A DNA stretch of 39,254 bases from a virus (lineage: Duplodnaviria; Caudoviricetes), in IMG/VR virus record IMGVR_UViG_3300048861_000058, positions 1-39,254 of that record, one strand, 5' to 3'. Positions 12,222 through 14,686 of the stretch are shown piece by piece. Within the stretch, counting starts at the first letter, position 1. Each line of letters starts with the position of its first letter. The notes beneath the pieces are model-generated. The model was given only the letters and a program-made list of their open reading frames with translations. It did no database searches and was not told the DNA's origin. Made by a program: the position numbers and the translations under genes.

Positions 12222-12547
12222 ATTCTGAACGAGCCCTGACCCTGCGGGAAGTCGCGGAGCTTACCGGGTTCTGCTACGACACGATCTTCGCCAAGAGAAA
12301 GCAGCTCGGCTTCCGTCTTCCGAATAGCCGTGAATGGCGAGTCTGGCCCTCCCGCCTTGCCGAACTGACAGAAAAGCGGTCCAATCTGACCCGGCTAAGT
12401 CTGCGGGTAGAGGAAGAAAAATGCCCATCCGCAAAGGTGCCAATGGCATCTATAAGCTTGACCTCCGCACGCCAGGCGGAGAAAGAATTAGACGCTCTAC
12501 TGGCACAAAGGACCGCAAAGCAGCGCAGGAATACCACGACCAGCTAA
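12218..12547 (+). CDS. xis: Excisionase-like HTH protein
   Basis: LTLREVAELTGFCYDTI...GFRLP...EWRV; overlaps the 5' end of the integrase. Confidence 0.65.
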   Translation: MNSERALTLREVAELTGFCYDTIFAKRKQLGFRLPNSREWRVWPSRLAELTEKRSNLTRLSLRVEEEKCPSAKVPMASISLTSARQAEKELDALLAQRTAKQRRNTTTS

Positions 12548-13491
12548 AGGCCACGCTATGGCGCATGGACAAGCTGGGTGAGGAACCTGATCGGATGTTC
12601 GATGAGGCTGCCTTACGGTTCCTGACGCTCTACGCGAACTCCCGGGACTATCGCAACAAGCTCCGGCATGTCGCGTGGTGGAGGGAGCGATTCAAGCAGC
12701 GCACGATTCGTTCTTTAACCGCTGGCGACGTTCTAGACGCGGCGCCGACGCACCTTATCCGAGAGAACCATCCGCCTAAGGCTTTGGCTCCGGCCACCAT
12801 CAACCGCTACGTAGCGACGATGGCGCGGATTCTTTCACTCTGCGAAGAGTGGGGCTGGATCAGCAAGGCTCCGAAACTCACCCTTCAGGAAGAACCTGAA
12901 ACCCGGGTCCGCTGGGAGCCTAAGCACGTAATCGTGAAGCTGATCAAAGCTATGTCAGTGAGCTGGATGCAGGAGCTTTCCCTGTTCGCCGTATCGACAG
13001 GAATGAGGCAGAGCGAGATTACGACCCTCACTTGGTCTCAGGTCGACATGGCGAAGAGCCACGCCTACGTGACGGCACCAGGGGCTAAATCGAAGAAGGC
13101 CCGGGGTGTTCCTTTGAACGCAGACGCCATGCTGGTTCTGAAGCAACGGATGGGCAAGCACCCTACCCTGGTCTTCACCCGTTCGGAGAGCGCTATCGCC
13201 ATTCAGGAAGTTGACCGTCGCGTGCTGGCTAGAGCATGCAAAGCGGTCGGCATCGAGGATTTTCACTTCCACGACTTCCGACATACCTGGGCATCGTGGC
13301 ATATCCAGAGCGGGCAAACTTCGCTACTGGCGCTCAAGGAATTGGGCGGCTGGAAGAAGATCGAGATGGTTCTGAAGTACGCCCATCTCGCTCCGGATCA
13401 CCTGTCGCACCATGCTCATGCGGTCACGTTTTGGTCACTGCCCGAGGATCACAAAGAAAAACCGCCGGCTAGGGCGGTTCTAAGTGCTTGA
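12421..13491 (+). CDS. int: Tyrosine integrase
   Basis: TGMRQSEI, KSKK, HDFRHTWASW, LGGW, KYAHL. Confidence 0.96.
   Translation: MPIRKGANGIYKLDLRTPGGERIRRSTGTKDRKAAQEYHDQLKATLWRMDKLGEEPDRMFDEAALRFLTLYANSRDYRNKLRHVAWWRERFKQRTIRSLTAGDVLDAAPTHLIRENHPPKALAPATINRYVATMARILSLCEEWGWISKAPKLTLQEEPETRVRWEPKHVIVKLIKAMSVSWMQELSLFAVSTGMRQSEITTLTWSQVDMAKSHAYVTAPGAKSKKARGVPLNADAMLVLKQRMGKHPTLVFTRSESAIAIQEVDRRVLARACKAVGIEDFHFHDFRHTWASWHIQSGQTSLLALKELGGWKKIEMVLKYAHLAPDHLSHHAHAVTFWSLPEDHKEKPPARAVLSA
13422..13438 (+). promoter_or_regulatory. Putative integrase arm-type sites (left arm)
   Basis: GGTCACGTTTTGGTCAC, 16/17 identical to 13673-13689 on the other side of the core. Confidence 0.6.
13453..13479 (-). 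terminator. Intrinsic terminator downstream of the tRNA 3' end
   Basis: Minus strand AACCGCC-ctagcc-GGCGGTT-TTTCTTT. Confidence 0.65.
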
Positions 13492-13507
13492 AACCTCTAA
13501 GCTTTTT

Positions 13508-13554
13508 TGGCTCCCCGAGCTGGGCTCGAACCAGCGACCTGCGGATTAACAGTC
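13508..13554 (-). mobile_element. attP core: 3' half of tRNA-Asn(GTT)
   Basis: Minus strand GACTGTTAATCCGCAGGTCGCTGGTTCGAGCCCAGCTCGGGGAGCCA: anticodon loop, T-arm and CCA, with no 5' half; 16 bp from the int stop. Confidence 0.92.
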
Positions 13555-13672
13555 GCCCGGTTTCGGAGTGCTTCATAGCAGGAATCAGTGCTAGATCAAC
13601 AACTTGCAGGCTTAGCCACAACCTCAATCTTAGCCTGATTCCGTGCTTTTTGGGCCTGTTTTGACCTTCTTT

Positions 13673-13689
13673 GGACACGTTTTGGTCAC
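13673..13689 (+). promoter_or_regulatory. Putative integrase arm-type sites (right arm)
   Basis: GGACACGTTTTGGTCAC. Confidence 0.6.
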
Positions 13690-13697
13690 CCTCAGGA

Positions 13698-13727
13698 CTG
13701 GATACTTGAACAGTACATAGGTAGAAT
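13698..13727 (+). promoter_or_regulatory. LexA (SOS) box overlapping a sigma70 promoter
   Basis: a-CTGGATACTTGAACAG-ta (CTG-N10-CAG, 13698-13713); TGGATA-17 nt-TAGAAT. Confidence 0.75.
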
Positions 13728-13733
13728 GTAAGC

Positions 13734-13973
13734 GTCATCCGGTCCGCAAGGATCCGGCTTGAGTCTGAGGGGATCAAACCTCACAGCCGTCCGCGCTGGC
13801 GACGCTAAAGGCCAGCTCCATCAAGGCAGGGCGTTCCCCGGATCATGTTTCGGTTTCTGCGGACGCGTAGAGTAATGAGCGGTCTGCCTTGATGGTGAGG
13901 GACGGGCTCTAGCGTGCCGCTACGTGATGGTGCCTTCATCGGTTCGACTCCGACAATCCAGCGGATCACCATC
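13734..13973 (+). ncRNA. Putative large structured RNA or structured 5' leader
   Basis: Nested helices including a 13-bp stem 13818-13830/13883-13895, a GCAA tetraloop and a TTCGACT T-loop hairpin; G-U pairs favour the plus strand. Confidence 0.6.
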
Positions 13974-14028
13974 TTAAAGATTCTGGCCATTTCCTTTAAT
14001 AGCCTATCCGCTTATTTAAGGTGCTGTC

Positions 14029-14199
14029 ATGAGGCCCATCAAAGAATTCCGCCCTCCCGAACAGCCTGGGCCGACCTATCACGGTCAGCCGGTGGCCGAA
14101 CCATTTGTAGGACCGCCTGAGCCGTGGCAGATACGTGCACGCCAGGTGGGGAATTCGAAGAGAAAGCCTAGGAGGAAGGCTTCAGACACACCGTCGTGA
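14029..14199 (+). CDS. Small protein (56 aa), candidate SOS-induced antirepressor
   Basis: TAAGGT RBS; MRPIKEFRPPEQPGPTYHGQPVAEPFVGPPEPWQIRARQVGNSKRKPRRKASDTPS; function inferred from context only. Confidence 0.45.
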   Translation: MRPIKEFRPPEQPGPTYHGQPVAEPFVGPPEPWQIRARQVGNSKRKPRRKASDTPS

Positions 14200-14686
14200 T
14201 GTAGTCCTGAAGACCCTTTATTTTGATGGCGTCGGACTGGATTGCAGATCGGAGATCGAGAACAGTTTGTCCAGCAGCGGCAGTGAGTTCGATGCCGGCG
14301 CCATCAGGTCCGCTGGCGGAGCTGGGGGTAGTGGACAGCTGACCGCGTAGGGCTGCAATTGTGCTGGCTTGGAGGCGCACCCGCTTATCGCCAGAAGCCA
14401 CAGCAGCAGACAGAGTTTTGTTTTCATCCTGGACCGCCTGAAGTTTGGTTTGAGTATCTTGCGCGAGCTGCGCGTTGATGAGGTTCTTGCCTTGGAGGTC
14501 GGCCAGCTTCTGGGCATAGTCCGCTGCGGCAGCGTCTGAAACACCCTTGAGTTGGGTCGCATAGTTAGCTTGAAGCGTGTTGTATTTCGCCTCCCACCTC
14601 CAGCCGTTGACCCACCATCCACACCCTAGACCCACGGCCAGGGCAATCAAGACCAGAACGACAGGGCGCATCAGGAAAGCGAACAT
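14168..14686 (-). CDS. Rz: Rz-like inner-membrane spanin
   Basis: N-terminal TM, GWWVNGWRW, coiled coil, GDKRVRL, GLQDYITTVC; follows the endolysin. Confidence 0.88.
   Translation of the reverse strand: MFAFLMRPVVLVLIALAVGLGCGWWVNGWRWEAKYNTLQANYATQLKGVSDAAAADYAQKLADLQGKNLINAQLAQDTQTKLQAVQDENKTLSAAVASGDKRVRLQASTIAALRGQLSTTPSSASGPDGAGIELTAAAGQTVLDLRSAIQSDAIKIKGLQDYITTVCLKPSS
14218..14427 (-). CDS. Rz1: Rz1-like outer-membrane spanin lipoprotein embedded in Rz
   Basis: MKTKLCLLLWLLAISGC lipobox; Pro-rich CPLPPAPPADLM. Confidence 0.85.
   Translation of the reverse strand: MKTKLCLLLWLLAISGCASKPAQLQPYAVSCPLPPAPPADLMAPASNSLPLLDKLFSISDLQSSPTPSK

Follow-up and report, generated by a model that had tools for sequence, protein, structure and literature searches.

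A conserved pseudoknot RNA of phages within a structured region behind a predicted LexA-box promoter

What kind of RNA, if any, is encoded by a densely structured stretch of about 240 nt that lies between a phage attachment site and the ends of the lysis genes? The stretch belongs to a complete virus record of 39,254 bases, all of which was analysed and is called the window here; one soil metagenome run is listed for it and may be its source. Terminase, portal, capsid, endolysin and spanin genes are all on its - strand; an integrase gene lies on the + strand, and an excisionase-like gene is encoded as well. The initial annotation read the stretch as a single LexA-controlled RNA of no recognised family, placed it beside attP, and proposed a DNA-damage-induced noncoding RNA or switch-like leader that gates prophage induction. 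The placement beside attP holds. Positions 13509-13554, which precede the flagged region, match 10 of 401 genomes from the order of Herbaspirillum, with all 22 places among the matches listed being exact, and all four matching loci examined are tRNA-Asn(GTT) genes. The match to the 3' half of tRNA-Asn identifies this segment as attP and makes a betaproteobacterium the likely host, judging from the sequence. The flagged region points toward the lysis genes and away from int. The features of the locus are these:

12334-13491, + strand: integrase gene
13509-13554, - strand: attP core, the 3' half of a tRNA-Asn gene (partial match to the Rfam tRNA model), outside the RNA
13698-13713, + strand: predicted LexA (SOS) box, CTGGATACTTGAACAG, over the -35 hexamer, likely inherited from an SOS cassette gene
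13699-13727, + strand: predicted sigma70-type promoter, TGGATA-17-TAGAAT (pattern scan)
13739-13783, + strand: two 5' hairpins seen in the sequence (GCAA tetraloop; TGAGG/CCTCA), specific to this phage
13788-13816, + strand: conserved H-type pseudoknot of 29 nt (pattern search and covariation)
13818-13895, + strand: long helix directly 3' of the pseudoknot, with a 13-bp core here and a variable structured insert
13926-13973, + strand: 3' domain, a T-loop hairpin closed by GAUGGUG/CACCAUC, specific to this phage
14029-14199, + strand: 56-aa ORF, by homology the C-terminal third of a prophage gene of about 125 aa, convergent with the spanin gene

The SOS box over a TGGATA/TAGAAT promoter is borne out at the sequence level. 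Among seven CTG-N10-CAG sites in the window, CTGGATACTTGAACAG comes nearest to the E. coli LexA consensus, and the promoter is the sole promoter-like match in 13400-14400, where 0.4 would be expected. Together they make a credible predicted LexA-box promoter, and a transcript is predicted to start near 13734.

The dense structure is also real. Every sequence motif in the initial annotation was found where it had been placed, with one correction: the 13-bp helix (13818-30/13883-95) consists of 12 Watson-Crick pairs plus one G-U. Folding of 13730-13975 gives a z-score of -3.04, matched by 1 of 200 shuffles, and on the + strand the core at 13758-13910 reaches -4.7; the reverse strand scores -1.4 to -2.4, and the 3' "tRNA-like" domain (13920-13975) only -0.87. 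As had been said, no known family is recognisable: Rfam 15 has no match in the window at the gathering score, nor with a credible E-value over the element. ARAGORN reports no tRNA or tmRNA in the window, and such an identity was rejected, there being no cloverleaf and just a T-loop hairpin in the 3' domain.

A blastn search with the whole region against 50,697 phage records found no match, and a weak nhmmer match in locus L006 was discarded as falling in a coding region. A permissive plasmid search yielded two weak intergenic matches in betaproteobacterial replicons, and both have CCGCRCTGGCG-N4-TAAAGGCCAGY in common with window positions 13791-13816. Used as a strict-core pattern, this string finds 18 viral and 48 metagenome loci. 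A relaxed pattern finds 27 genome loci, seven of which have the strict core and a paired stem 1: these are from Comamonas, Herminiimonas, Chromobacterium, Methylobacillus, Herbaspirillum, Paludibacterium and one contig labelled Propionibacterium, whose copy is nearly identical to that of Methylobacillus. The other 20 were set aside as chance matches: judged by inspection, they seem to be coding regions from unrelated organisms, and no more than 2 have all three stem-1 positions paired. Further variants include one in Aeromonas phage ST4. The final set has 53 members in 36 groups with unrelated flanks, although stem-1 pairing partly guided membership (4 strict-core matches were dropped, and then 3 of 9 new ones). 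Members are phages, prophages and phage-like plasmids, mostly of Betaproteobacteria. No host-encoded copy turned up when another 400 genomes from the Herbaspirillum order were searched, which marks the pseudoknot as rare and not a host gene; one candidate host genus has 2 variants in 62 genomes, and another has none in 17. The relatives of this phage by integrase or endolysin (G001, G022 and G023) lack the element.

The sequences fold as an H-type pseudoknot. In this copy stem 1 is CGUC/GACG (13788-91/13801-04) with loop CGC, and stem 2 is GCUGGC/GCCAGC (13795-800/13811-16) with loop CUAAAG; the family form is NNNC/GNNN, CGC, RCUGGC/GCCAGY and NWAAAG. The three free positions of stem 1 are Watson-Crick paired in 52, 51 and 44 of the 55 distinct strict-core loci, as counted before any filtering. 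Reduced to 15 distinct combinations, stem 1 forms 34 of 45 pairs, whereas shuffles average 16 and none of 100,000 reaches 34. In an alignment of 45 rows (A2), from which 4 unpaired matches had been dropped beforehand, 98.9% of cells are paired; three of the four stem-1 pairs and one of the six stem-2 pairs change on both sides, in 41 cells. Sliding the register of the same alignment as a control lowers pairing to 16-51%. The strong covariation of stem 1 and these slid-register controls establish the element as an H-type pseudoknot. The end pair of stem 2 varies (G-C, A-U, G-U, C-G), and the rest of it is unchanged among paired members even where the pattern left positions free, an invariance partly built into the searches. 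The fixed letters of stem 2 argue for sequence-specific recognition, unlike pseudoknot obstacles to RNase E, whose composition matters little (PMC9943677).

The pseudoknot is therefore, with its clean covariation, a real uncatalogued phage RNA family. No description of it was found in the openly readable literature that was searched. One survey lists over ten thousand viral RNA candidates (PMC10690425); the motif strings are absent from those of its supplementary tables that were searchable, a part of the files, and the motif may be among the candidates. Rfam matches at 3, 17 and 10 homolog loci are to neighbouring tRNA, tRNA-like, intron and hammerhead elements only. As minor observations, the full pseudoknot of Aeromonas phage ST4 is closely preceded by a second, partial copy (L143:2461-2485), and two loci of an AT-richer phage group (L031 and L038) have a second candidate pseudoknot, with a UUAAAA loop, about 100-70 nt 5' of the core.

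The long-range pairings proposed for this copy do not recur in the homologs. CGTCC/GGACG can form in 8 of 43 homologs, with about 7.6 expected by chance, and GACGCTA/TAGCGT in 1 of 43, with about 2.1 expected. The homologs use these bases for a local pairing between CGTC and GACG, which is stem 1 of the pseudoknot. The proposed pairings are compatible with the minimum-energy nested fold of this copy, where a local alternative fold may exist in this copy alone.

The next element, directly 3' of the pseudoknot, is a long helix. In 31 of 43 members it has at least 13 net pairs and begins 0-1 nt beyond the pseudoknot, whereas such a helix starts at 14 of 217 control positions; 9 of the 43 have a short helix or none. 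The conserved unit is 29 nt plus this optional helix, whose inserts vary within the family and are sometimes tRNA-like. Nothing else in the stretch is conserved to this extent: a search of 226 loci at E<2 finds nothing that corresponds to the 5' hairpins or the inside of the helix, and a single weak match to the T-arm domain (E=1); the GGATCA repeats were not found in homologs. A search of viral contigs for a T-arm plus GGATCACC gave 17 matches, tRNA-like or chance, and was rejected as a lead. The structured-RNA reading of the initial annotation thus stands for the presence of a real, uncatalogued + strand RNA, and fails for the 240 nt as one conserved RNA.

A two-hairpin motif recurs within 450 nt downstream of the pseudoknot in 12 of 53 members, and upstream in none. 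Its loops are complementary (GGCUGAU and GAUCAGC types), and it lies 3' of the core in L032, L036, L038, L048, L057, L100, L108, L117, L143, L193 and others. It has no Rfam match and is not C4. C4 antisense RNA (RF01695) was rejected for both the element and the helix inserts after a search of five carrier genomes or records, where the sole C4 match lies elsewhere and is unrelated in sequence. Two other candidate roles were put aside. For a substrate of RNase P, which PMC12710915 describes as a pseudoknot plus RCCA, the RCCA-like bases vary and are usually paired in the helix, leaving a minor possibility. A stop-codon readthrough signal was considered on visual inspection of two loci; in these the reading frame ends inside the motif or immediately behind it.

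Where, then, does the SOS box come from? The initial annotation saw no convincing ORF, and this is correct within the RNA; just downstream, the ORF at 14029-14199 is a real gene remnant. This Pro/Arg-rich ORF has one close protein relative, and is 51-61% identical to the last 28-43 residues of three homologs (L212-L214). The three are full-length proteins of 123-129 aa from prophage-like loci, found among 301 genomes; L006 matches more weakly. In all four relatives an SOS box, of the CTGGAT...CAG type in L212-L214, lies 12-15 nt 5' of the start codon, while here the SOS box is 315 nt 5' of the ATG of the remnant. The gene is convergent with the lysis cassette in L212 and L006, as it is here, and the N-terminal part of this SOS cassette gene has no significant trace in the window. 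The simplest reading would be that the RNA block replaced the first two-thirds of the SOS cassette gene and took over its promoter. The region is very probably a chimera of a pseudoknot-plus-helix module, a LexA-box promoter and the last third of an SOS cassette gene. Several smaller observations concern the same gene. The family of about 125 aa ends in F(V/I)GPP...RRR (window ORF, L212, L213, L214, L006). The neighbouring gene in L212 and L006 looks like an SRAP-type peptidase. Translated in the remnant's frame, positions 13837-13851 of the window, in the helix insert, give PGSCF, similar to the PGSCL of two full-length homologs; at E=0.83 the likeness is probably due to chance.

The arrangement invites comparison with tisB and dinQ, LexA-controlled genes in which a long structured leader precedes a short hydrophobic toxin ORF. 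An SOS box, a long structured leader and a short ORF are all found here too. The ORF, however, is Pro/Arg-rich rather than a hydrophobic toxin and is the remnant of a longer prophage gene, and the RNA family is not tied to LexA. A LexA-controlled type I toxin leader was rejected: there is no short hydrophobic membrane peptide, and the 56-aa ORF is homologous to the end of the gene of about 125 aa.

These results bear directly on the original proposal, a damage-induced RNA or switch-like leader controlling prophage induction. In its favour are the credible LexA box over a promoter, the dense structure and the alternative pairings of this copy. Against it, the box does not belong to the RNA family and traces to the SOS cassette: only 1 of 50 other family loci screened has a LexA-like box within 400 nt upstream, and that one is weak. 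Homologs show the switch pairings about as often as expected by chance, the transcript is directed away from int and xis, and nothing ties the RNA to either of these genes or to the repressor. We consider gating of induction very improbable, and the claim that the 240 nt form one such RNA is not upheld. The idea of SOS gating, which was the source of the apparent uniqueness of the locus, applies to no more than this one phage among the loci screened.

Members of the family occupy intergenic positions, in + strand orientation. Five lambdoid prophages (Aquitalea, Paludibacterium, Chromobacterium, Herbaspirillum and Herminiimonas) carry the pseudoknot in the early-left operon, preceding recombination, methylase or integrase genes; it is just 3' of an antisense cassette in 4 of the 5 and directly before terminator-like hairpins in 3. 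The Paludibacterium prophage has two copies 1 kb apart. The Comamonas copy is ahead of a tRNA-like gene and terminase genes, the copy in Aeromonas phage ST4 (OR261032, 70760-70803) is ahead of three tRNA genes, and in other phages the pseudoknot lies between replication and nucleotide-metabolism genes. It follows closely on a promoter here and in L133, and a good promoter within about 100 nt upstream was found at only 3 of 46 loci. Terminator-like hairpins within 400 nt are not enriched (10 of 49 downstream, 12 of 47 upstream, 12 of 49 on the other strand), as scored by a strict detector that missed some terminators visible by eye.

Two explanations that invoke a partner molecule can be weighed on these contexts. 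Lambda nutL lies ahead of an RNase III stem, and a nut-like site here, inactive as RNA alone and bound by a phage or host protein (N-like, a Nus factor, or a ribosomal protein such as S1), would account for the invariant core and for the early-left leader position ahead of a long stem. The 99 and 72 flanking proteins scanned have no neighbour gene in common, so any partner would have to be a host protein, and boxA-like sites are not enriched upstream (9 vs 11 of 46); a nut-like site is improbable. The other explanation makes the transcript a decoy produced on induction, either a ToxI-like pseudoknot or a tRNA-like bait for a host defence nuclease. Type III antitoxin pseudoknots are of similar size and have a similar A-rich loop, and tRNA-like inserts are frequent in the family; but the element has no Rfam match and occurs as a single copy rather than as tandem repeats, and its mid-operon positions fit a role in cis better. 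A decoy is highly improbable.

An element acting in cis calls for comparison with put of phage HK022, the standard example of an RNA that, unaided by any protein, reprograms RNA polymerase; its processive antitermination depends on the zinc-binding domain of beta'. As described in the cryo-EM study (PMC9378689), stem I of putL comprises a duplex (3-7/15-19), a minor-groove strand (21-25) and pairs between 9-14 and 30-35 that run inward from A9-G35, G35 being essential and A9 its partner; stem II begins at residue 36. The residues given there were used to locate putL in HK022. A single generic pseudoknot descriptor finds putL as the only site in 10 kb of HK022, allowing one mismatch, and the site at 13788-13816 as the only one in the 39-kb window, allowing none. 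Both RNAs have a compact 5' domain of pseudoknot type followed directly by a long stem, a topology that covariation supports for the present family, and in both a third strand would lie in the minor groove of stem 1, as we infer for our family. Both occur in early-left operons of lambdoid phages. N-UAAA directly after stem 1 is found in putL as well, but UAAA is not kept in putR or in the put of PdC23, and so counts as a generic pseudoknot feature.

The sequences are nonetheless different. GAACGGC, GUCGG and the GGCG/CAAU loop of stem II are invariant in six put RNAs and absent from the pseudoknot family, which has instead an invariant CCGCRCUGGCG...WAAAGGCCAGY; it is without the A9-G35 pair, the U28 bulge and the conserved GGCG/CAAU loop including A64. 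Its helix is variable and optional, it is usually not next to a promoter, and its members come mainly from betaproteobacterial phages, also in lytic-type replication operons and tRNA clusters, whereas the put RNAs retrieved are all from enterobacterial phages (putL and putR are annotated in GenBank for HK75 and HK639). A covariance model of the six put sequences (R2) finds both puts of HK75 and no pseudoknot site in 18 other loci, and the model of the pseudoknot family (R1) misses the put sites in 6 loci. Given the absence of the invariant put residues and the failure of the reciprocal models, the family is, at the level of sequence, not a member of put. The R77-L78-K79 contact residues and the C70-C88 zinc motif of the beta' subunit are present in three candidate-host genomes, where a put-like contact would thus be feasible.

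The generic descriptor also exposed a look-alike pseudoknot in the enterobacterial phages S9-5, HK639, HK225, Fels2, Edno5 and ENT1. It is unannotated, occurs in 19 phage records and in 52 of 5,426 E. coli genomes, and no description of it was found in the searches made. For example, it lies at L149:1848-1880 in S9-5, and also in L146 and L202-L205, after cassettes in early and late operons. Its design is that of the pseudoknot family: a GCGC-(C/U)GG core, an A-rich loop and often an AC(C/U)AAC-like tail. It occupies a similar slot behind cassettes, and in two phages it has a helix whose insert is of the tRNA-like or two-hairpin type. It differs in stem 2 (GCCGGG/CCCGGY) and in its longer loop, and model R1 misses it in the two loci tested. 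The helix behind the look-alike in ENT1 and HK639 is the one found behind put in CobraSix and S9-5, and this common helix connects both kinds of element with a single slot. In HK639 and S9-5 the look-alike occurs downstream of a put within one operon, an arrangement that makes a purely redundant role as antiterminator less likely.

The reading we tentatively favour, short of calling it probable, is a put-like antiterminator: the module may act in cis on the nascent transcript, making polymerase resistant to pausing and termination. The module's fold and fixed core speak for this reading, as do its places in early-left operons and at tRNA clusters and the slot in common with put. In such a mechanism the pseudoknot would fold during transcription, its UAAAG loop docking in the minor groove of stem 1 and the whole stacking on the next helix, and would bind polymerase near the RNA exit channel, at the zinc-binding domain of beta'. 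In this phage, DNA damage and LexA cleavage would induce a transcript carrying the module and the 56-aa ORF, which would run through hairpins, pseudoknot, helix, T-loop domain and ORF to a terminator-like site near 14216. Any read-through past 14216 would give RNA antisense to the spanin and endolysin genes, and antisense RNA only, since no + strand gene was recognised downstream; that outcome itself counts against a put-like role. So does the lack of terminator or promoter enrichment across the family, and so do the members whose helix is short or missing, as put needs stem II. Since put acts over 10 kb, a look-alike downstream of put, or two copies 1 kb apart, would look redundant.

The main alternative is an RNA insulator, in which the pseudoknot would block RNase E scanning, exonucleases or Rho, while the helix would serve as a processing stem of the RNase III type, freeing small cargo RNAs and making the message downstream more stable. 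The principle comes from reporter constructs in E. coli, in which RNase E scanning is hindered by H-type pseudoknots with 8-15 coaxial pairs (PMC9943677). Like those obstacles, the present family is H-type, has about 10 coaxial pairs and sits in an untranslated stretch. The stop codon of a long reading frame is within 60 nt in 16 of 47 members, several are 3' of antisense cassettes, terminators and promoters are not enriched, the helix encloses tRNA-like or two-hairpin inserts, one of which follows but never precedes the core, and copies downstream of put find an explanation. However, an 11-pair pseudoknot is described in the same paper (PMC9943677) as a modest obstacle whose composition is of little consequence; sequence carries little weight in the constructs while our family keeps a fixed core, and a modest, composition-blind obstacle leaves a near-invariant core across unrelated phages unexplained. 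Nor does the insulator suit a pseudoknot just after the promoter, as here and in L133. We regard it as rather unlikely.

Returning to the put-like reading, a wider version of it is doubtful: that the family is a second, sequence-distinct class of protein-free antiterminator, a plug-in of about 30 nt used by phages of Beta- and Gammaproteobacteria and interchangeable with put by way of the look-alike, here wired to SOS so that antisense RNA into the lysis genes would delay lysis after induction. If the put-like role holds, this smaller, sequence-distinct element would show how betaproteobacterial phages express long operons and tRNA clusters, and would supply a 30-nt genetic part; if the insulator holds, it would be a natural and widespread RNA-stability insulator. 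Aeromonas phage ST4 is a cultured phage carrying the pseudoknot, which leaves the family open to reporter and phage tests.

A few members have other unusual neighbours. On an Aromatoleum plasmid (NC_006823; L028:2200-3660), about 1.5 kb of hairpin-dense non-coding DNA, followed by the pseudoknot, has no Rfam match; close copies of this DNA are present in L064, L073 and L102, and one stretch of it, split by a large insert, is reminiscent of the L11-binding part of 23S rRNA. Two further elements are found no more than about 1.2 kb from family members: one resembling a group I intron, next to a tRNA-like end (L082:2662-2868), and a hammerhead-like ribozyme (L072:1578-1636).
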